Positions 365 to 28,452 of a DNA stretch of 32,000 bases are shown piece after piece. Source of the stretch: Candidatus Nitrosopumilus koreensis AR1 (GTDB lineage Archaea > Thermoproteota > Nitrososphaeria > Nitrososphaerales > Nitrosopumilaceae); assembly GCF_000299365.1 (NCBI RefSeq), contig NC_018655.1:1470001-1502000 (forward strand), written 5' to 3'. The notes beneath the pieces were generated by a model. That model saw only the letters and a program-made list of their open reading frames with translations. It searched no databases and had not been told where the DNA came from. A program made the position numbers and the translations under genes. Each line of letters starts with the position of its first letter. Position 1 is the stretch's first letter.

Positions 365-438
365 TGCAGTCAGCGGGATTCGAACCCGCGTCACAGGGTT
401 GGAAACCCCGAATACTAACCAGGCTATACTATGACTGC
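365..438 (-). tRNA. tRNA-Gly (anticodon UCC)
   Basis: Hand-folded cloverleaf on the minus strand. Acceptor stem GCAGTCA/TGACTGC plus discriminator A; D stem GTAT/GTAT with loop AGCCTGGTTA; anticodon stem CGGGG/CCCTG with loop TTTCCAA (anticodon TCC); T arm GCGGG-TTCGAAT-CCCGC. No CCA is encoded and there is no intron. Confidence 0.9.
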
Positions 439-2304: not shown

Positions 2305-4956
2305 TTATCCAGACGTACAACCACTAAATCCGCATTCAATGCAGATACTGCAACCTTCTACAAATACAAGATTGTTTTTGCATGTTGGGCACAGACGATC
2401 TTCTGAAACTTCCTCTGATTGAATGGGTTCAGATTTTATTTCTTCATCATGTACCTTTAATGCAAGTGCTGCATTAACTTGGGATTTGATGTAGGGATTT
2501 GTTATTTGTTTTGTAACATATTCTGTCACATGTTCACTAGGAGTAACATCAAATATTTTTTGAGCATTCTCACTTGTCATGTGAAGAACTTGTTTGTGTC
2601 TAGAGCCATCACGGTAAACTGTAATTCCCTTGAGTCCAATTTCATGGGCTAACAGATATGCTGACTTTACATCTTCTGCAGTTACATCATATGGCATGTT
2701 GATTGTTTTTGCAATTGCATTTCCAATCCAGTCTTGCCATACACCTTGAGCCATAAGGTGATCAGACCAGTGAATATCCATTGCAGTGACAAAGACATCT
2801 TGCATCCATTGAGGAATTTCTTCGATCCCTTTCAATGAACCATAGTTGTCTGCAATCTTTGCAAGAATTTCATCTGTGTATAGATTATTTTCTTTTAGGA
2901 CTTGTTCAACAATTTTGTTTGTGTAGAAGAATCTTCCTACAGTAACTCTCTTCTCAAAGACCAATGCAAATGCAGGTTCCATTCCATTTGAACAGTCTGC
3001 AATCATTGACAGAGTACCTGTTGGGGCTACAGTTGTAGTCAAGACATTTCTTATTCCGTATTCCTTTATTTTTTCAATCAATGCATCCCATTCATAGGAG
3101 TGGGATTCTTTTGGTTTTTCATAATAACCTGCAACTGGAATCTTTCCTTCAGGATATTCAGTCTTAGAACACAATGGGAATTCACCACGAGATTTTGCAA
3201 GGGCTACACTTTCTTCCATGGAATAATATGTTAGGGCTTCAGAGAGTTTGGATTGTAATTCATATCCTTCTTTGGAGTTGTATGGAATTCTTAGTTTGTA
3301 CAACAGATCAGCTACTCCCATTACACCTAAACCAATTCTTCGAGATTCTTTTGATGCTACGTTGATCTCTGGTACTGGATAGTTGTTAACATCTATGATG
3401 TTATCAAGGAATCTAGTAGTCTTTCTGATTGTTTCCTCATATCTTTGCCAATCAAATTCATAGGTTCCATCTGCTTGTCTCTTGACAAGATTTACCAAAT
3501 TGATTGAACCAAGATTGCATGATTCGTATGGGTAAAGACTTTGTTCACCACAAGGATTTGTTGCACGTAATGGTGCTTGTCTTGCTTTTGCAAACACGTT
3601 GTATTTGTTAATTTGATCAAAGAAGATCAAACCAGGTTCTGCACTCTTCCATGCAGACAATGCAATCAAATCAATTAATTGATGTGCATTGATTTCTTTG
3701 ACTGGTTTTTTGTCACGTGGACTACGTAAGACATAGTTTCCATCACTGGTATTTACAAGTGCATGCCAAAAGTCCTCCCAAATACCTACACTGACGTTAA
3801 AGTTTTCTAAAACTCCAGGTTCTGTTTTGTTTGTGATGAACTTTTCAACATCTGGATGCCATGCTTCAATAATTCCCATGTTAGCACCACGTCTCTTTCC
3901 ACCTTGCTTTACTACTTCAGTTACAGTGTTAATGATGTTCATAAATGACACTGGACCTGATGCAACGCCTGATGTAGAAGCTACAATATCACCTTCTTCA
4001 CGAAGATCAGAGTAGTTTATTCCCACTCCACCACCGGATTTGAAGATTAATGCTGCATCAGAAGTTGATTTCATGATTTCTTCCATGCCATCATTCATTC
4101 CAAGCACAAAACATGCAGAGAGTTGACCTAGTCTGCCACCTGCATTCATCATTGTTGGTGAATTTGGCAAAAAGTCTTGTGCAACCATCAGATCAAAGTA
4201 TTCTGTGATTTTGTCTGCATAGCTGTCTAGTTTTTTAGCTGCAAGCAATGTCAAAAGTTCTTTGAAGCTTACTTTCATCTGACCCTTTCCTGCAAGAGTC
4301 ACATAGTGGTTGATGAGTGATCTGAAATGCCATTTGTTGAAGAAGTAATCTCCAACTTTGAATTTGTAATCAAAGGCATCTAGTTTTTCAAGATAAGATT
4401 TTGCTTCCTCTACGTCTTGAGTAGTGTGCCCTGACTTGTCAAATACTTGTGCATCATACAACATATCACCAATCCCTACAAGAATTGCAACTCTCTCAAA
4501 CATCTGAGTTGGAGACTCAATAATCTCATTTTTTCCATTTCTGAAAAGGTATCTTGATGCTAAGACTCTGAGACAGTTCAAGTCAAACTTTTTGGAAACT
4601 GGATCTAAGGCCTTTAGATTTAGGACCTTCATCTTTTCGTCTCTTAGTTTTCGTCTCTCATGTCTGTAAACAATGTAGGCTTTAGCAATATCGCTATTAC
4701 CACTATCAATCAAAGTAGACTCTACAATATCTTGAATGTCTTCAACTGTAGGTGTTCTAGAACTAGTAAATCCTTGTTCTACTAATTTGTTAACAACATT
4801 ATCTGCTAACTGGTCGGCTAGGCCACGGTCGGCTTTAGAGGTGGCAGCCAATGCCCTGAATATGGCATTTGAAATTTTATCTTTATTGAAAGCCGTAACT
4901 GCGCCACTGCGCTTACGGATCTCACTGATCGTATTTTCTATTTGTGAATTATCCAT
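2305..4956 (-). CDS. nrdJ: Ribonucleotide reductase, class II (adenosylcobalamin-dependent), with N-terminal ATP-cone and C-terminal zinc ribbon
   Basis: Motifs: N-terminal ATP-cone (IRKRSGAVTAFNKDKISNAI), NPCGEQSLYPYESCNLGSINL, TVAPTGTLS, C-terminal CPTC...CSICIECG. The tracked ORF begins with TTG at 4986, so I place the start at the ATG at 4956 (MDNSQIENT). Confidence 0.9.
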   Translation of the reverse strand: MDNSQIENTISEIRKRSGAVTAFNKDKISNAIFRALAATSKADRGLADQLADNVVNKLVEQGFTSSRTPTVEDIQDIVESTLIDSGNSDIAKAYIVYRHERRKLRDEKMKVLNLKALDPVSKKFDLNCLRVLASRYLFRNGKNEIIESPTQMFERVAILVGIGDMLYDAQVFDKSGHTTQDVEEAKSYLEKLDAFDYKFKVGDYFFNKWHFRSLINHYVTLAGKGQMKVSFKELLTLLAAKKLDSYADKITEYFDLMVAQDFLPNSPTMMNAGGRLGQLSACFVLGMNDGMEEIMKSTSDAALIFKSGGGVGINYSDLREEGDIVASTSGVASGPVSFMNIINTVTEVVKQGGKRRGANMGIIEAWHPDVEKFITNKTEPGVLENFNVSVGIWEDFWHALVNTSDGNYVLRSPRDKKPVKEINAHQLIDLIALSAWKSAEPGLIFFDQINKYNVFAKARQAPLRATNPCGEQSLYPYESCNLGSINLVNLVKRQADGTYEFDWQRYEETIRKTTRFLDNIIDVNNYPVPEINVASKESRRIGLGVMGVADLLYKLRIPYNSKEGYELQSKLSEALTYYSMEESVALAKSRGEFPLCSKTEYPEGKIPVAGYYEKPKESHSYEWDALIEKIKEYGIRNVLTTTVAPTGTLSMIADCSNGMEPAFALVFEKRVTVGRFFYTNKIVEQVLKENNLYTDEILAKIADNYGSLKGIEEIPQWMQDVFVTAMDIHWSDHLMAQGVWQDWIGNAIAKTINMPYDVTAEDVKSAYLLAHEIGLKGITVYRDGSRHKQVLHMTSENAQKIFDVTPSEHVTEYVTKQITNPYIKSQVNAALALKVHDEEIKSEPIQSEEVSEDRLCPTCKNNLVFVEGCSICIECGFSGCTSG

Positions 4957-5161
4957 TATAATCTCCCCGTAGAGGGTTATGATCAATGAGAGTATAAATG
5001 GTTTGTCAGTTTTTGTCTAAAAATTCGGTTCAATAAAATTGACAACGGTACTATGAATTTCATAACGGCATAACTTGCACAGTAGACGATGATCGTACAG
5101 GTCTGAAACAGATCAAAAAGTTTTCAAAAATGATCGTAACTAGTTTGCTCAGTTATGAAAT

Positions 5162-7327
5162 TCAGACAACGTACGGAGACTTGCACTTTGGACACTTGTC
5201 ATCAAAGGGTTCGTCCTTGAACCCACATTCACCGCATATTGCAATCTCTTGAACAGGTTTAAAGGAAGTCGTAAGTTCTGATGCTTTCTCAATTGCCTTT
5301 TTGATTTCTGCAGGCTTAGCATCCTTTGCGATTTTCAACGTTACAAACAATCCTCCGTTAAGCAGCTTTGAGAGCTTGTTGCATTCAGATATTGGCTCGC
5401 TTTTGTTAGTATAGTCAGAGATCTCAGATGCACTAATTTCTATTCCTTCTGAGTAAGAATCGCCATCCATAGAGTTCAAAGAGGAGTTTTTACCGTATTT
5501 CTCACCATCTAGGGTTGCAAAACGAGTAGAACTCTCAGTCTCAGTCATGCAAATAGCCACAGGATCACCTAATTCTTTGCCTTTTTTGGCTCCAACATCA
5601 ACTGCGGTCTCAATTACCTTGTGAAGGATTTCATGCCCTTCCTTATTATCCTTGAATCCAAGAATGTTAAAGACTGCCTCCTTGAGGCCCACTAAATTAA
5701 TGACTAGTGAAACAGTGCTTCTTTGCATGTACTGGGTGTTTTTAGCCAAGATGGGATTCAGTCCGCGTCTTGTCAGATCCGAGATGTCTTTCTTTCTTAG
5801 TGCCATAGATGACAAAGCTGGTTTCATCAACAATGCCAATCTTGCTCTAAAGTAAGTTTCATCTTTGTTTGATTCAAATGCTAATCTTGGAAGGTTAATT
5901 GATACTGATTGGAGCATAATTGATAGTGGACCAGAACTTTTGGTTGAGCCGTTTGTAACTCCGTAACTTGATGTTTGTCCTTTAGCAAACATAACTTTAC
6001 CACCAATTGAAATTATTTCGGATACAGCTTCAGAGACATCAGTAATCTTTCCTTTTTCATTGTCTATGATCAAACCAATTTTTGGAATTGGTGTGATCTT
6101 TGCATAGTTTTGATATGCATTAATAATTGAATTAATTATTTTTGTATCAGATCCTAGTTGCAATCTGATTGAAACATTAGTACTTGATTTGTTATATTTG
6201 GAAGTTGTAGATGCAGTTGCAAATGCTGCAGTTAATTTTTGTTCTAGTTCTGGAAGTGACTTTGAATGTTTTGAAAATAATTGAACTAATCCATCAAGTA
6301 CAATTTCTTGTGAAGCTTCTTTTGAAAGAAGTGAGATTACAACAGACAATGCACTGGTAATTTCGTCTAATTGTTTTGATGCAGGAATTCTTGAGACATC
6401 AAGATACTTTCCACCAAGATCTATTCCATCTTCAATTAACTCTTTAACATTAACAAAAACTGTATCAGGAATCATTGACCATACACCAGGATTTGCAATA
6501 TGTAGATCACCAGAGAGATGAGAGTCGGCTACATCTTTTGGTAAGATGTTTGTAAGAAGATGTTCAGCAAAAACTCTTTGTCCTGTTTTAAACAAGAGAC
6601 CTTCAGCACCGTTATCTACATTATCTAAGTTGGTAATCATCTCTTGAACATCATAAACAGGCAAGCCTAGGCGTGCAAGCTTGTTACGATATTCTTCGTG
6701 ACCGTGCTCAAGGAGCACAGAATTCACCATTTCTCTGATAAGCGAGCCTGTAAGATAGGTAGTCTGATACTTGTAAATTCTGTTTTCAACTTCTTCAGTA
6801 ATTTTTTGTGCAAGTTCAAGTGGAAGACTACCCTCACGAACAAGTGACTGAATGATTTTATGAGAATTAAATTCTTCAATGGATTCATGTGATGTTCTAA
6901 CATACATCTTTCCACTTTCAATAATTGATCTTTCTTCGATTTGTCTTGCTAAGCTCAAAACTAATTTTCCAAGATTTGTAATTGTATAACGTCTTTCAGA
7001 TTTGTTTAATGCAACTAGTGATTGTCTAAGTAATTTTCTCAAGTGGTATGCAAATTTTCCACTTTCTTTTTTTGATTTGAAACCGGCAAGTGATTTTAGT
7101 TCTGAATAAGTTAAAGGACCTTTTGAATTTAGGATTCTTAAGATATCGATTCTGTTAGGGCTTGCCATTACAGAGAAGATCATTCTGACACGTTTTGAGG
7201 TAGACTGTAAAATGCCACCCCGTTTTGATGAATCCGAATCGTCATCCAAGTCTGCATCTAGATCATCGTCTTCGACATCTAGATCACCTTCAAGATCTAA
7301 TTCTAGTTCTTCATCACTCATTTTCAT
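5162..7327 (-). CDS. Multidomain protein: acidic N-terminus, winged-helix (ArsR-like), ATP-cone, NrdD-like body and terminal zinc ribbon, with no glycyl-radical motif
   Basis: 721 aa. wHTH: NRIDILRILNSKGPLTYSELKSLAG. ATP-cone: MYVRTSHESIEEFNSHKIIQSLVREG...REMVNSVLLEHG. NrdD-like block: ADSHLSGDLHIANPG. The C-terminus CGECG...CPKCKSPYVV ends directly after the second CxxC, with no RVxGY-type glycine-radical segment. Confidence 0.6.
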   Translation of the reverse strand: MKMSDEELELDLEGDLDVEDDDLDADLDDDSDSSKRGGILQSTSKRVRMIFSVMASPNRIDILRILNSKGPLTYSELKSLAGFKSKKESGKFAYHLRKLLRQSLVALNKSERRYTITNLGKLVLSLARQIEERSIIESGKMYVRTSHESIEEFNSHKIIQSLVREGSLPLELAQKITEEVENRIYKYQTTYLTGSLIREMVNSVLLEHGHEEYRNKLARLGLPVYDVQEMITNLDNVDNGAEGLLFKTGQRVFAEHLLTNILPKDVADSHLSGDLHIANPGVWSMIPDTVFVNVKELIEDGIDLGGKYLDVSRIPASKQLDEITSALSVVISLLSKEASQEIVLDGLVQLFSKHSKSLPELEQKLTAAFATASTTSKYNKSSTNVSIRLQLGSDTKIINSIINAYQNYAKITPIPKIGLIIDNEKGKITDVSEAVSEIISIGGKVMFAKGQTSSYGVTNGSTKSSGPLSIMLQSVSINLPRLAFESNKDETYFRARLALLMKPALSSMALRKKDISDLTRRGLNPILAKNTQYMQRSTVSLVINLVGLKEAVFNILGFKDNKEGHEILHKVIETAVDVGAKKGKELGDPVAICMTETESSTRFATLDGEKYGKNSSLNSMDGDSYSEGIEISASEISDYTNKSEPISECNKLSKLLNGGLFVTLKIAKDAKPAEIKKAIEKASELTTSFKPVQEIAICGECGFKDEPFDDKCPKCKSPYVV

Positions 7328-7463
7328 GTACCTTTCTAAAAAAAAGCACTAATTAAGACTTATGACAGTATTAATTTGGATCGTTTTTGATCATTTTTCT
7401 AAATGCATACAAGGGTTTTAGATCTAATTTTGAAAAATTATGAAAAAGATCAGATAACATAGA

Positions 7464-7625
7464 TCATTTTTCTTGAACATCTAATGAAAATTCCGATGTA
7501 GAGAGTTTCTGTCCACATGACGGACACTTTCCACTATAAGGATTCATTACATCTTTTAGAGATTTTAACATCTTCATGTTTGTGATCTTTTCACCACATT
7601 TTCCACATGTAACTTCTACAGACAT
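7464..7625 (-). CDS. Small zinc-ribbon protein (53 aa), below the ORF-track cutoff
   Basis: Hand translation gives MSVEVTCGKCGEKITNMKMLKSLKDVMNPYSGKCPSCGQKLSTSEFSLDVQEK. It has an ATG start, a TGA stop and two CxxC pairs, and it lies in an otherwise unassigned 370-nt gap on the same strand as its neighbours. Confidence 0.5.
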   Translation of the reverse strand: MSVEVTCGKCGEKITNMKMLKSLKDVMNPYSGKCPSCGQKLSTSEFSLDVQEK

Positions 7626-7696: not shown

Positions 7697-8062
7697 TTAC
7701 TGTTTTTCGATGATGATTCCTCTTTCATCGAAACCAGTAATTTTTGCTCTAGTCCCAACCGGAAGATCAGAAGGGGTAGCAATTCCTGCCATAAATCCTG
7801 AAATCCTCAAATCAGAATTATCCAGTTTGAGCACAACAAAGGCATATGGAGTATATTTCTCAAAGCCTGCAGGAGCCACAGTAATTATGGTATAAGTGGC
7901 AATTTCGCCAGTACCCTCCAAAAGCACATCCTCAAATCCCTTACTGCCACACTCTCGGCAAAAATATGCTGTAGAGAGATGAAGATATCCACAATCAGTA
8001 CACTTGTGAGTTAGGAGTTTACCATTTTTGGCGTTTTCAATTACTTGTTCTTCAACAGACAT
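7697..8062 (-). CDS. DUF35 OB-fold/zinc-ribbon protein (thiolase-associated scaffold)
   Basis: CTDCGYLH...CRECG rubredoxin-like zinc ribbon followed by an OB-fold-like C-terminus. The ATG at 8062 lies 1 nt after the thiolase stop. The tracked TTG-type extension to 8113 overlaps the thiolase and is unlikely. Confidence 0.8.
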   Translation of the reverse strand: MSVEEQVIENAKNGKLLTHKCTDCGYLHLSTAYFCRECGSKGFEDVLLEGTGEIATYTIITVAPAGFEKYTPYAFVVLKLDNSDLRISGFMAGIATPSDLPVGTRAKITGFDERGIIIEKQ

Positions 8063-27019: not shown

Positions 27020-27949
27020 TTAAAAGCCATTTTCATTTAATGTCAAACCCAGTAATGCAGCACGAGTATATTTTCCATATTCTGCCTGCTCAAAATACTT
27101 TGCATTTTTTGTTTGATCGATGTCTGTTGAAATCTCATCAATTCTTGGAAGAGGGTGTAAAATTATACTGTCTTCTTTCATTTGTTTGAGTAAATCTAGC
27201 CCTACAACATAACTTCCCTTTACTTTGAGATATTCTTCTTCATCAGGGAATCTTTCTTTTTGAATTCTTGTCACATACAAAACATCAAGTTCATCAATGT
27301 GGTCTTCAATTTTAGTTGATTCAGTAAAATCCAATTTCTTTTTAATTTCATAAGTAGAGTCAGACCTGATTCTAAGTGATTCTGGGGAAATTAATTTTAT
27401 GTCAACATCATAGTTTCCCAATCCATGCAAAAGTGAATAAACAGTTCTTCCATACTTTAGGTCACCTATGATTCCAATTTTTAGTCCATCAATCTTTTTC
27501 TTTTCTTTTTTGATGGTAAACAGATCTTGAATTGCTTGAGTTGGGTGTTCTTCAGTTCCGCTGCCGGCATTGATGACAGGTTTGTCTGAAACTTCAGCTG
27601 CAAATCTACTAGAACCATCAAGAGTATGTCGCAAAACAAGTATGTCAGAATAGATAGACATTATTCTAACAGTATCAGCTAGACTTTCACCTTTCTGAGT
27701 TGATGACGAATTAATATCAGAAATTCCTAGAGAATTGCCACCAACAGATGCCATTGCAGAATCAAAGCTAAGACGGGTTCTGGTACTTGGTTCATAGAAC
27801 AGATATGCTAATGTGTTGCCCTTACAGATTTCTCGTCTGTCAGAGGGGTTTAGTTGCATGATTTTATCAGTAGCGGTAAAGATTTTTTCTAGTTGATCTT
27901 TGCCAAAGTCTTTAATTGAGATTATGTCTCTTTGATAGAACTCGTTCAT
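27020..27949 (-). CDS. pyrB: Aspartate carbamoyltransferase catalytic subunit
   Basis: 309 aa. Motifs: FYEPSTRTRLSF, HPTQAIQD, HPLPR. Confidence 0.95.
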   Translation of the reverse strand: MNEFYQRDIISIKDFGKDQLEKIFTATDKIMQLNPSDRREICKGNTLAYLFYEPSTRTRLSFDSAMASVGGNSLGISDINSSSTQKGESLADTVRIMSIYSDILVLRHTLDGSSRFAAEVSDKPVINAGSGTEEHPTQAIQDLFTIKKEKKKIDGLKIGIIGDLKYGRTVYSLLHGLGNYDVDIKLISPESLRIRSDSTYEIKKKLDFTESTKIEDHIDELDVLYVTRIQKERFPDEEEYLKVKGSYVVGLDLLKQMKEDSIILHPLPRIDEISTDIDQTKNAKYFEQAEYGKYTRAALLGLTLNENGF

Positions 27950-27990
27950 GCTCTCAATGATATATACAGGTGGGTATACAAAGTATTCTG
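27950..27990. promoter_or_regulatory. 41-bp divergent pyrB/pyrI intergenic region with TATA-like elements for both directions
   Basis: tatataca at 27961-27968 lies about 23-30 nt upstream of the pyrI ATG. On the other strand, tttgtatac lies a similar distance upstream of the pyrB ATG. This implies overlapping promoters and near-leaderless mRNAs. Inference only. Confidence 0.35.
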
Positions 27991-28452
27991 ATGGAACAGT
28001 CCGAACTTTTGGTTCGACGAATCAAAGAAGGTACTGTAATTGACCATATTGATGAAGGCAAGGGTCTACAGGTACTCAATGCTTTGAGAATAGATGGGAA
28101 AGATGGCAGTTTGATTACCATAGCGTTGAACGTGCCAAGCGGCAAATTTAAGAAAAAAGACATCATCAAAGTAGAAAACAAGTTTCTAAAAGATGATGAT
28201 ACAAACAAAATCGCAGTTATTGCTCCAAAGGCAACAATCAACATGATCAAGGACTACAAGCTGGTAGAAAAGAGAAGGGTGTCACTGCCAAATGAGATTG
28301 ATAAGATATTTCGATGCTCAAATCCAGACTGCATTACAAACAGCACTGAACACATTGAATCAATTATGGATGTAATTGACAAGGAAGGAACTGTACTCAA
28401 ATGTAGATATTGTGCAAGAGTACTGGATGTAAACCAGCTAAAATATAATTAA
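27991..28452 (+). CDS. pyrI: Aspartate carbamoyltransferase regulatory subunit
   Basis: LLVRRIKEGTVIDHIDEGKG, and a C-terminal zinc domain CSNPDC...CRYC. The tracked start at 27970 is GTG, and the ATG at 27991 gives the canonical N-terminus. Confidence 0.9.
   Translation: MEQSELLVRRIKEGTVIDHIDEGKGLQVLNALRIDGKDGSLITIALNVPSGKFKKKDIIKVENKFLKDDDTNKIAVIAPKATINMIKDYKLVEKRRVSLPNEIDKIFRCSNPDCITNSTEHIESIMDVIDKEGTVLKCRYCARVLDVNQLKYN

Follow-up and report, generated by a model that had tools for sequence, protein, structure and literature searches.

A Predicted Pseudoenzyme Derived From Anaerobic Ribonucleotide Reductase as a Candidate Regulator of Ribonucleotide Reductase Genes in Archaea

Introduction

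What does a protein do that most database records name an anaerobic ribonucleotide reductase (RNR), and whose gene lies next to the gene for an RNR of another class? This question is raised by a locus of Candidatus Nitrosopumilus koreensis AR1, which is part of a stretch of 32,000 nucleotides (nt) of contig NC_018655.1 (positions 1,470,001 to 1,502,000). The stretch was analyzed as a whole and is called the window throughout, and all coordinates are positions in it. The protein has 721 amino acids (aa) and is named X here. Its gene (5162 to 7327, reverse strand, ATG start, TGA stop codon at 5164-5162) is directly followed by nrdJ (2305 to 4956, reverse strand, likely ATG at 4956), which encodes a class II (B12) RNR and is the presumed target gene. 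A preliminary description of the locus, made from the sequence letters without database searches, had proposed that X might be a nucleotide-responsive regulator of RNR. From the analyses reported below, which support this proposal, we infer that X is probably a pseudoenzyme that acts as a nucleotide-responsive transcription factor of RNR genes, and that it would be a functional analogue in archaea, assembled from other parts, of NrdR, the RNR-specific repressor of bacteria.

Results

Domain Architecture of Protein X

X is composed of an acidic disordered tail, a winged helix-turn-helix of the ArsR/SmtB type, an ATP-cone, a body corresponding to NrdD, the class III RNR, and a zinc ribbon with four cysteines (Cys4), in this order. 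The architecture of tail, ArsR-like winged helix, ATP-cone and NrdD-like body had been described before, and it was recovered with Pfam, AlphaFold2 (AF2) and Foldseek. Four Pfam matches were obtained, all above the gathering score, i.e., HTH_20 (residues 54-106, E 8e-8), DUF7347 (residues 50-124, E 3e-10), ATP-cone (residues 141-213, 33.8 bits, cut-off 25.8) and NRDD (residues 466-717, E 9e-26). The AF2 model of the whole protein, for which 76 family sequences were used, had a predicted local distance difference test (pLDDT) score of 81 and a predicted template modeling score of 0.69. The closest homologues of X are Nitrosopumilus proteins with 93-95% identity. The placement of the start codon is less certain, because the homologues vary in the length of the tail and some have a GTG start.

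The tail was assigned to residues 1-37 (7217 to 7327, reverse strand) from the sequence and the AF2 model; residues 1-38 are acidic and were modeled as disordered, with a pLDDT of about 33. An acidic tail recurs among the homologues of the Nitrosopumilaceae, with variable length and sequence, and is absent from other orders. The winged helix (residues 45-136, 6920 to 7195, reverse strand) was recognized by Pfam, AF2 and Foldseek, and in the AF2 model it has the topology a1-a2-a3-aR-b-b-a5. Its putative recognition helix, GKFAYHLRKL, lies within these coordinates and bears the H-L signature of ArsR-type proteins. Residues 36-232 were modeled separately (pLDDT 83) and used as a Foldseek query. 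The matches included CzrA, SmtB, HlyU, CadC and AntR, with target-normalized template modeling scores of 0.6-0.75 and root mean square deviations (rmsd) of 2.6-3.4 A; the E-values were modest (2e-3 to 3e-2), because the query consisted of two domains. The NCBIfam profile HTH_metalloreg scored 23.5 bits against a cut-off of 55. Profile and predicted fold are thus in agreement with the earlier view that the N-terminal region has a DNA-binding fold, and any DNA binding by X would come from the winged helix, and not from the zinc ribbon.

The ATP-cone (residues 141-218, 6674 to 6907, reverse strand) was identified by Pfam, alignment and Foldseek, and in the AF2 model it is joined directly to the winged helix by one long helix (residues 118-138). 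The cone is non-canonical, as its hairpin reads VRTSHE, whereas canonical cones have V-x-K-R-D-G in the alignment. It matched the cone of StNrdD with an rmsd of 1.8 A over 88 columns, and the top Foldseek match of residues 36-232 was an NrdR chain, which was found via the cone.

The NrdD Body Retains the Fold and Has Lost the Catalytic Residues

A degenerate NrdD core and barrel were assigned to residues 240-690 (5258 to 6610, reverse strand) from profiles, fold and alignment. The best Foldseek matches of the X model were all class III RNRs, namely those of S. thermophilus, P. copri, T. maritima and phage T4 (E 1e-21 to 1e-13), and the family profile matched StNrdD with an E-value of 1e-34 over chain residues 158-684 of 734, ending at the zinc ribbon. 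The motif ADSHLSGDLHIANPG of X aligns with the NrdD motif A-H-x-x-G-D-I-H-x-H-D-L. The C-terminal zinc ribbon (5174 to 5245, reverse strand) was identified by alignment to the zinc site of NrdD, and its cysteines C698, C701, C712 and C715 align with C644, C647, C662 and C665 of E. coli NrdD. The NCBIfam NrdD profile (TIGR02487) scored 85 bits against a cut-off of 326, and on this basis X is regarded as a homolog, not as an equivalog, of NrdD.

Three catalytic features of NrdD were compared. First, X terminates 6 residues past the last zinc cysteine, and the glycyl-radical segment (R-x-x-G-Y) is absent, as had been noted before. The Pfam NRDD match spans positions 275-529 of the 562 profile positions and therefore ends ahead of the glycyl-radical end of the profile; in the alignment with E. 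coli NrdD the Gly681 region is missing from X, and all 120 Nitrosopumilus members have a gap at the radical position. Second, Cys384 of the finger loop of E. coli NrdD (MGCRS) has no counterpart. The only cysteines of X are residues 593, 649, 698, 701, 712 and 715, and the finger loop sits before the NLPR motif at residue 478. Since no cysteine precedes residue 593, there is none on the finger loop; among 120 close homologues, just one has a cysteine in the 60 aa ahead of NLPR. Third, the beta-A cysteine (Cys175 in E. coli) is replaced by threonine in X and in all 120 close homologues. An MGCR or MCCR motif in the finger loop is the defining mark of class III RNRs, and 92.6% of their sequences have the beta-A cysteine (PMC9669993).

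In addition, the CxxxCxxC motif of radical-SAM proteins, which would indicate the activase NrdG, was not found in any open reading frame (ORF) of at least 80 aa in the window, in line with the previous report that an NrdG gene is missing there. As judged from these residues, X cannot be an enzyme, because it has neither the glycyl-radical segment nor the finger-loop cysteine and carries threonine at the beta-A position, and it would represent a catalytically dead NrdD. The alignment to NrdD that had been suggested earlier thus spoke for a loss of catalysis.

Distribution and Origin of the Family

A search over 1.84 billion representative sequences yielded 1235 relatives with E<=1e-3 and 190 with E<=1e-30. 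According to the source names, the members are from Nitrosopumilales, Nitrososphaerales, Conexivisphaerales, Bathyarchaeia, Aigarchaeota and Asgard archaea. Members from the first three groups have 630-720 aa and end after the zinc ribbon, those from Bathyarchaeia have about 740-780 aa, and those from Aigarchaeota and Asgard archaea (Odin-, Baldr- and Ranarchaeia) have 565-710 aa. Their database names vary and include "anaerobic RNR", "ArsR regulator" and "HTH protein". A literature search retrieved no description of an architecture of winged helix, ATP-cone and dead NrdD. Phage relatives were considered and rejected, as the match to the NrdD of Vibrio phages was confined to the cone and the connector.

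The Bathyarchaeial members were informative about the origin of the family. At four loci they could be aligned end to end with the true NrdD that is encoded by the adjoining gene (28-35% identity, E 1e-75 to 1e-126), and by this alignment the family member is a paralog of the true NrdD. The latter has an intact SR[VI][TV]GY motif at the radical site, and its Pfam match, where checked, extends over the full profile with 478-644 bits. The 118 Bathyarchaeial family members (P0417-P0534) retain a vestigial radical tail after the zinc ribbon, and the position of the radical glycine is occupied by alanine in 91, by serine in 14, by threonine in 7 and by glycine in 3 of them. The beta-A position is glutamate in 100 of the 118. 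The cone and connector of X come nearer to Bathyarchaeial NrdD than canonical cones do (VRTSHE versus VRRTDG in the hairpin, LIREMVN and ADxHLSGDLHI in common).

Two database entries deserve comment. A protein of 1206 aa (P0264), which appeared to be a long family member, turned out to be a true NrdD split by an intein with a LAGLIDADG domain; it has an intact SRITGYY, a cone and connector close to those of X, and about 100 further residues ahead of its cone. A contig labeled as metagenome-assembled genome of a Phycisphaerales bacterium (L012, JAJDDC010000010.1) carries a gene 89% identical to that of X, followed by nrdJ, and is probably a misbinned Nitrosopumilus contig.

The distribution of conserved positions differed strongly between the domains. 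Between X and the homologues from Conexivisphaerales and Nitrososphaerales the identity was 77% in the winged helix, 66% in the ATP-cone and 24-34% in the barrel, and between X and Bathyarchaeia the values were 33, 56 and 16-21%, respectively. Among the Nitrosopumilus proteins the winged-helix stretch is 100% identical, and no other part is conserved so strictly in Nitrososphaeria. Across the family the ATP-cone is the best conserved domain and the barrel the least conserved part. As read from the alignments, this pattern is the reverse of that of an enzyme, with the constraint shifted to the N-terminal domains. The NRDD Pfam score falls from 242 bits in Bathyarchaeia to 109 in Baldrarchaeia, 91 in X, 46 in Odinarchaeia and 21 or none in the members of group C, one of which is from Aigarchaeota, and the scores of winged helix and cone stay about constant. 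The Cys4 zinc site is invariant in the Nitrososphaeria members and present in 117-118 of 118 Bathyarchaeial members. The zinc ribbon is lost in those Aigarchaeota and Asgard members that were examined, and it is therefore dispensable. The family forms a graded series, from a full-length dead paralog to proteins that lost the radical tail, then the zinc ribbon, and finally to proteins with a barrel that is barely recognized by the profile.

Linkage to Ribonucleotide Reductase Genes

The assignment of nrdJ is clear (TIGR02504, 720 bits, cut-off 400), and NrdJ has its own canonical ATP-cone. Its C-terminus (2305-2400) contains a CxxC...CxxC zinc finger followed by more cysteines (LCPTCKNNLVFVEGCSICIECGFSGC). 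Among the Nitrosopumilales loci with room for a downstream gene, nrdJ directly follows the family gene on the same strand in 77 of 78 from genomes and in 69 of 69 from metagenomes. At the sole Nitrosopumilus genome locus without a downstream nrdJ (L056), this gene is encoded on the opposite strand about 5 kb upstream, a position that points to a local rearrangement. The same order as in Nitrosopumilales was found in both Nitrososphaerales loci (2/2), and in Conexivisphaerales nrdJ adjoins the family gene in convergent orientation (4/4 loci). At a locus of a soil lineage (L171, 6377-8676) the family gene is followed by genes for a 220-aa protein of no assigned function and for a protein of 546 aa in which Ribonuc_red_lgC and TSCPD domains were recognized, apparently a class II RNR in split or short form. 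In Bathyarchaeia it is a true nrdD that directly follows the family gene (4/4 loci).

The family gene is therefore a neighbor of an RNR gene whatever the RNR class, i.e., of nrdJ in Nitrososphaeria and of a true nrdD in Bathyarchaeia. This linkage, which had been anticipated for Thaumarchaeota, extends far beyond them. The order X-RNR-pyrB-pyrI is common to Bathyarchaeia and Nitrososphaerales, and because of this shared block it looks as if nrdJ had taken the place of nrdD, with the regulator-like gene left where it was. This switch of the RNR class is a stronger argument than the adjacency within Nitrososphaeria. In Conexivisphaerales pyrBI are not beside the RNR gene, and likewise in the window likely pyrB and pyrI genes, recognized from ORF translations only, are at 27023-28449, about 20 kb from nrdJ.

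On the other side of X, a 53-aa ORF (7464-7625, reverse strand) encodes a CxxC...CxxC zinc-ribbon protein (MSVEVTCGKCGEKITNMKMLKSLKDVMNPYSGKCPSCGQKLSTSEFSLDVQEK), which had sub-threshold Pfam zinc-ribbon matches only and is directly upstream of the X gene in every Nitrosopumilales locus that was inspected. A tRNA-like sequence with a terminal CCA is found directly upstream of the X homologue at two loci of Conexivisphaerales (L084, about 7830-7925; L169, about 5750-5840).

Conserved Elements Upstream of nrdJ

The conservation of the region upstream of nrdJ was scored in 82 dereplicated Nitrosopumilales loci. The best conserved elements were a likely TATA box (TTTATA, 4993 to 4998, reverse strand), the 5' leader, an inverted repeat and a palindrome. 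The likely TATA box was identified by its conservation, and it implies that nrdJ has its own promoter. The inverted repeat GTCAATTTTATTGAAC (5028 to 5043, reverse strand), which lies about 30 bp upstream of the TATA box, is conserved as strongly as the latter and is a candidate operator. The palindrome TATGAAATTCATA (5052 to 5064, reverse strand), likewise recognized by conservation, is about 100 bp upstream of the nrdJ ATG.

Of 149 loci, 95 had a match to GT[CTA]AA-N5-6-TTGA between -87 and -100, with a background of 0.016 per 200 nt; because the loci are related, this number stands for conservation and not for independent recurrence. Perfect copies of GTCAA-N6-TTGAC were found upstream of the RNR gene in three loci of distant, GC-rich lineages (L084, L171 and L173). 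Only 6 perfect copies exist in 2.06 Mb, and 3 of these 6 are inside about 1.5 kb of RNR-upstream DNA. These copies are independent support at the sequence level for the repeat as an operator candidate. Altogether, a GTCAA-N5/6-TTGA(C) repeat occurs upstream of RNR genes across lineages of 35% to 59% GC, and the region of the recognition helix is identical across the orders that have the repeat.

The palindrome is kept, or swapped for ACGAAATTCGT, across Nitrosopumilales. A second, inverted copy, TGAATTTCATA (5154-5164, reverse strand), overlaps the stop codon of X. Both copies are centered on GAAWTTC; in other Nitrosopumilales both resemble ACGAAATTCGT, and a T-run follows the copy at the stop codon of X. 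A terminator hairpin could be formed here, or the palindrome could be a second site for a protein. No enrichment of the ATGAAATTCAT palindrome over chance was observed in the window, where the evidence for palindrome and inverted repeat consists of conservation only.

Upstream of X there is a conserved promoter block, GTCATAAGTCTTAATTA (7350 to 7366, reverse strand), which holds the TATA-like sequence CTTAATTA about 25 nt before the ATG. In our reading it may be a degenerate copy of the inverted repeat that overlaps the TATA box. GATC boxes, which have no strand assigned, are present in front of both genes. Three of them precede nrdJ (5091 to 5135, starts at 5132, 5111 and 5091, 21 and 20 bp apart, with interleaved T-runs), and four precede X (7379 to 7451, starts at 7448, 7421, 7389 and 7379). 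In Nitrosopumilus and Nitrosarchaeum they are strongly clustered near both promoters, with medians of 4 and 3 per 150 bp (99th percentile 3), and CGATCAT is found in 76 of 79 loci of these genera. As a general operator the GATC box was rejected, since it was inconsistent at 65-78% identity and absent in Nitrososphaerales, Conexivisphaerales and Bathyarchaeia; the arrays are a genus-level lead that is confined to Nitrosopumilus and Nitrosarchaeum. In loci L001-L080 there are typically 2-7 copies upstream of X, with tandem duplicated units in L016, L068 and L080, and in many loci the stop codon of the small ORF in front of X forms one of the upstream copies.

Two further searches addressed the intergenic DNA. 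An ACTAGT element, seen near the X-like and nrdD genes of one Bathyarchaeial locus (L085) and after the X stop codon, was dismissed because it is absent from the other Bathyarchaeial loci. A search for RNA elements in the intergenic regions with Rfam gave only the tRNA gene at 365-438 (reverse strand, 64 bits).

Discussion

A Possible Mechanism

The features described above can be combined into the following model. X would descend from a duplicated archaeal class III RNR that gained an N-terminal winged helix of the ArsR type. Its line would have lost the radical chemistry and kept the ATP-cone of NrdD together with the connector and helices behind it, as well as the core through which dimers are formed. 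In a dimer of X, the winged helices would bind to an inverted repeat in front of the RNR gene, here nrdJ. A nucleotide bound to the cone, and possibly also at a retained effector site of the core, would reposition the cones and the adjacent winged helices. For StNrdD it was shown that ATP and dATP give markedly different positions of the cone domain, and that dATP drives dimerization of the cones (PMC12662201). As winged helix and cone of X are joined directly by one long helix, a movement of the cones would shift the two winged helices, and this might change the affinity to DNA or the oligomeric state. Irrespective of activation or repression, the transcription of the RNR gene would then track the ATP/dATP pool or the deoxynucleotide (dNTP) pool. 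The candidate operator is upstream of BRE/TATA, a position that would be suited to an activator.

A bolder version, which we offer tentatively and consider conceivable rather than probable, is that a family spanning Thermoproteota and Asgard archaea was born of a duplicated NrdD, outlived its parent and stayed while nrdJ replaced nrdD. Its members would read the dNTP pool via a remodeled cone, perhaps also via the old effector site, would control RNR genes via GTCAA-N5/6-TTGAC, and would be an independent counterpart of NrdR.

Several observations weigh against a nucleotide-responsive regulator of RNR genes. The first concerns the ligand. In characterized cones a Lys-Arg pair of the hairpin contacts the phosphates (K9/R10 in EcRNR, K19/R20 in StNrdD) and an isoleucine of helix 1 discriminates the 2'-OH (I22 and I32, respectively; PMC12662201). 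The Lys-Arg pair is gone in X, which has V143-R144-T145-S146 with T145 and S146 at the positions of the pair, and therefore it is not certain that ATP or dATP is the ligand. The ATP-cone, which had been noted before, is confirmed as a domain, and its role as a nucleotide sensor stays putative. I158 of X aligns with the discriminating isoleucine and is nearly invariant in the family, and R144 and R198 are invariant across it. The invariance of these two arginines suggests that the pocket may have been remodeled instead of lost. The true NrdD that is encoded next door in Bathyarchaeia has a comparable variant of the hairpin (VRRTDG).

The second observation concerns the Bathyarchaeial members. 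Unexpectedly, the finger-loop cysteine (TGCRF) is kept in 79 of the 108 members with a recognizable motif, which a purely regulatory role does not explain; recent decay, a structural role or an interplay with the adjoining true NrdD could account for it. The cysteines were counted by motif, since the E. coli-anchored column of the alignment of 474 sequences was misaligned and was not used. Third, much of the adjacency within Nitrososphaeria could be inherited gene order. Fourth, the spacing of the repeat is unequal, with N5 in Nitrosopumilales and N6 in Conexivisphaerales, a clear copy was seen neither at the two Nitrososphaerales loci nor upstream of X, and within the window the inverted repeat is not enriched beyond chance.

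Alternative Explanations

The alternative of which most survives is that X is a DNA-binding regulator with a main regulon other than RNR, e.g., genes for pyrimidine synthesis, replication or the cell cycle, or that it is a general nucleoid protein. It is in accordance with the position of pyrB and pyrI behind the RNR gene in Bathyarchaeia and Nitrososphaerales, with a candidate operator whose binding by X is putative, and with the GATC arrays near both promoters in Nitrosopumilus, which hint at additional or different sites. However, the RNR gene is the one constant neighbor in all lineages, even where pyrBI are elsewhere, and the sensor module is itself derived from an RNR, so that this explanation is considered unlikely.

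A role at the protein level appears to be somewhat more unlikely still. In this case X would act on the NrdJ or NrdD protein as a nucleotide-sensing partner, inhibitor or chaperone, and the winged helix would serve for protein contacts. Tight linkage with RNR genes would be expected for such a partner as well, the dimer core of the NrdD type is kept and could pair with the true NrdD paralog in Bathyarchaeia, and most members from there have the finger-loop cysteine. Yet the family persists in Nitrososphaeria, where the partner would be the class II enzyme NrdJ, which is no paralog of X. The surface of the core is poorly conserved. The winged helix shows the H-L signature of ArsR-type recognition helices, and among the Nitrososphaeria proteins it is conserved more strictly than any other part.

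That X is a working class III RNR, as its NRDD domain, NrdD-like fold, retained zinc ribbon and the sources' name "anaerobic ribonucleoside-triphosphate reductase" would imply, is effectively refuted by the sequence, as all three catalytic features are missing, the NCBIfam NrdD score is far below its cut-off, the Pfam score is below those of the true neighboring NrdDs, the barrel is the least conserved part, and the window contains no activase motif.

Comparison With Known Systems

A regulator of RNR genes with a cone would resemble NrdR, and this parallel had been drawn before. It holds for the combination of an ATP-cone with a DNA-binding module and for the genomic tie to RNR genes, and in both cases RNR transcription is expected to follow the ATP/dATP pool. 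It does not hold for the zinc ribbon, which in X is the C-terminal zinc site of NrdD and not the N-terminal ribbon of NrdR. The DNA-binding domain of X is an ArsR-type winged helix, whereas that of NrdR is the N-terminal zinc ribbon. In addition, X includes an entire dead NrdD body (about 480 aa), its cone is devoid of the Lys-Arg pair, and the site proposed for it does not correspond to an NrdR box. X does not belong to the NrdR family.

With NrdD of the Bathyarchaeial type, which has an adjacent small redoxin, X is homologous throughout after the winged helix, and it shares the cone, the connector motif (A-H-L-S-G-D-x-H), the barrel, NLPR and the Cys4 zinc ribbon. It differs by the lack of the glycyl-radical site and the thiyl-radical cysteine, by a degenerate barrel and an additional DNA-binding domain, and by its persistence in aerobes that use a class II RNR. 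With ArsR/SmtB proteins (CzrA, SmtB, CadC, HlyU) it has in common the winged-helix fold with flanking helices and the H-L signature. Their sensor is a metal site in the winged-helix dimer, in contrast to the fused 580-aa remnant of a nucleotide enzyme in X. A further comparison is offered by the archaeal protein RbkR, reportedly a riboflavin kinase with a winged helix that is said to be bifunctional. In both cases a winged helix is fused to an enzyme domain of the controlled pathway, but the enzyme part of X would be dead and is derived from RNR.

Implications

NrdR is rare in archaea (PMC9110341), and a literature search retrieved nothing on the control of RNR transcription in archaea. Because of the rarity of NrdR, X would fill a gap in this domain. 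Thousands of database entries from aerobic archaea have the name "anaerobic ribonucleoside-triphosphate reductase"; they are probably misannotated, and they can mislead metabolic reconstructions that take them as a sign of anaerobic capacity. Taken together, the X family offers a concrete candidate for an RNR regulator in the ecologically dominant ammonia oxidizers, in Bathyarchaeia and in Asgard archaea, and it would be a clear case of an enzyme that was turned into a sensor.

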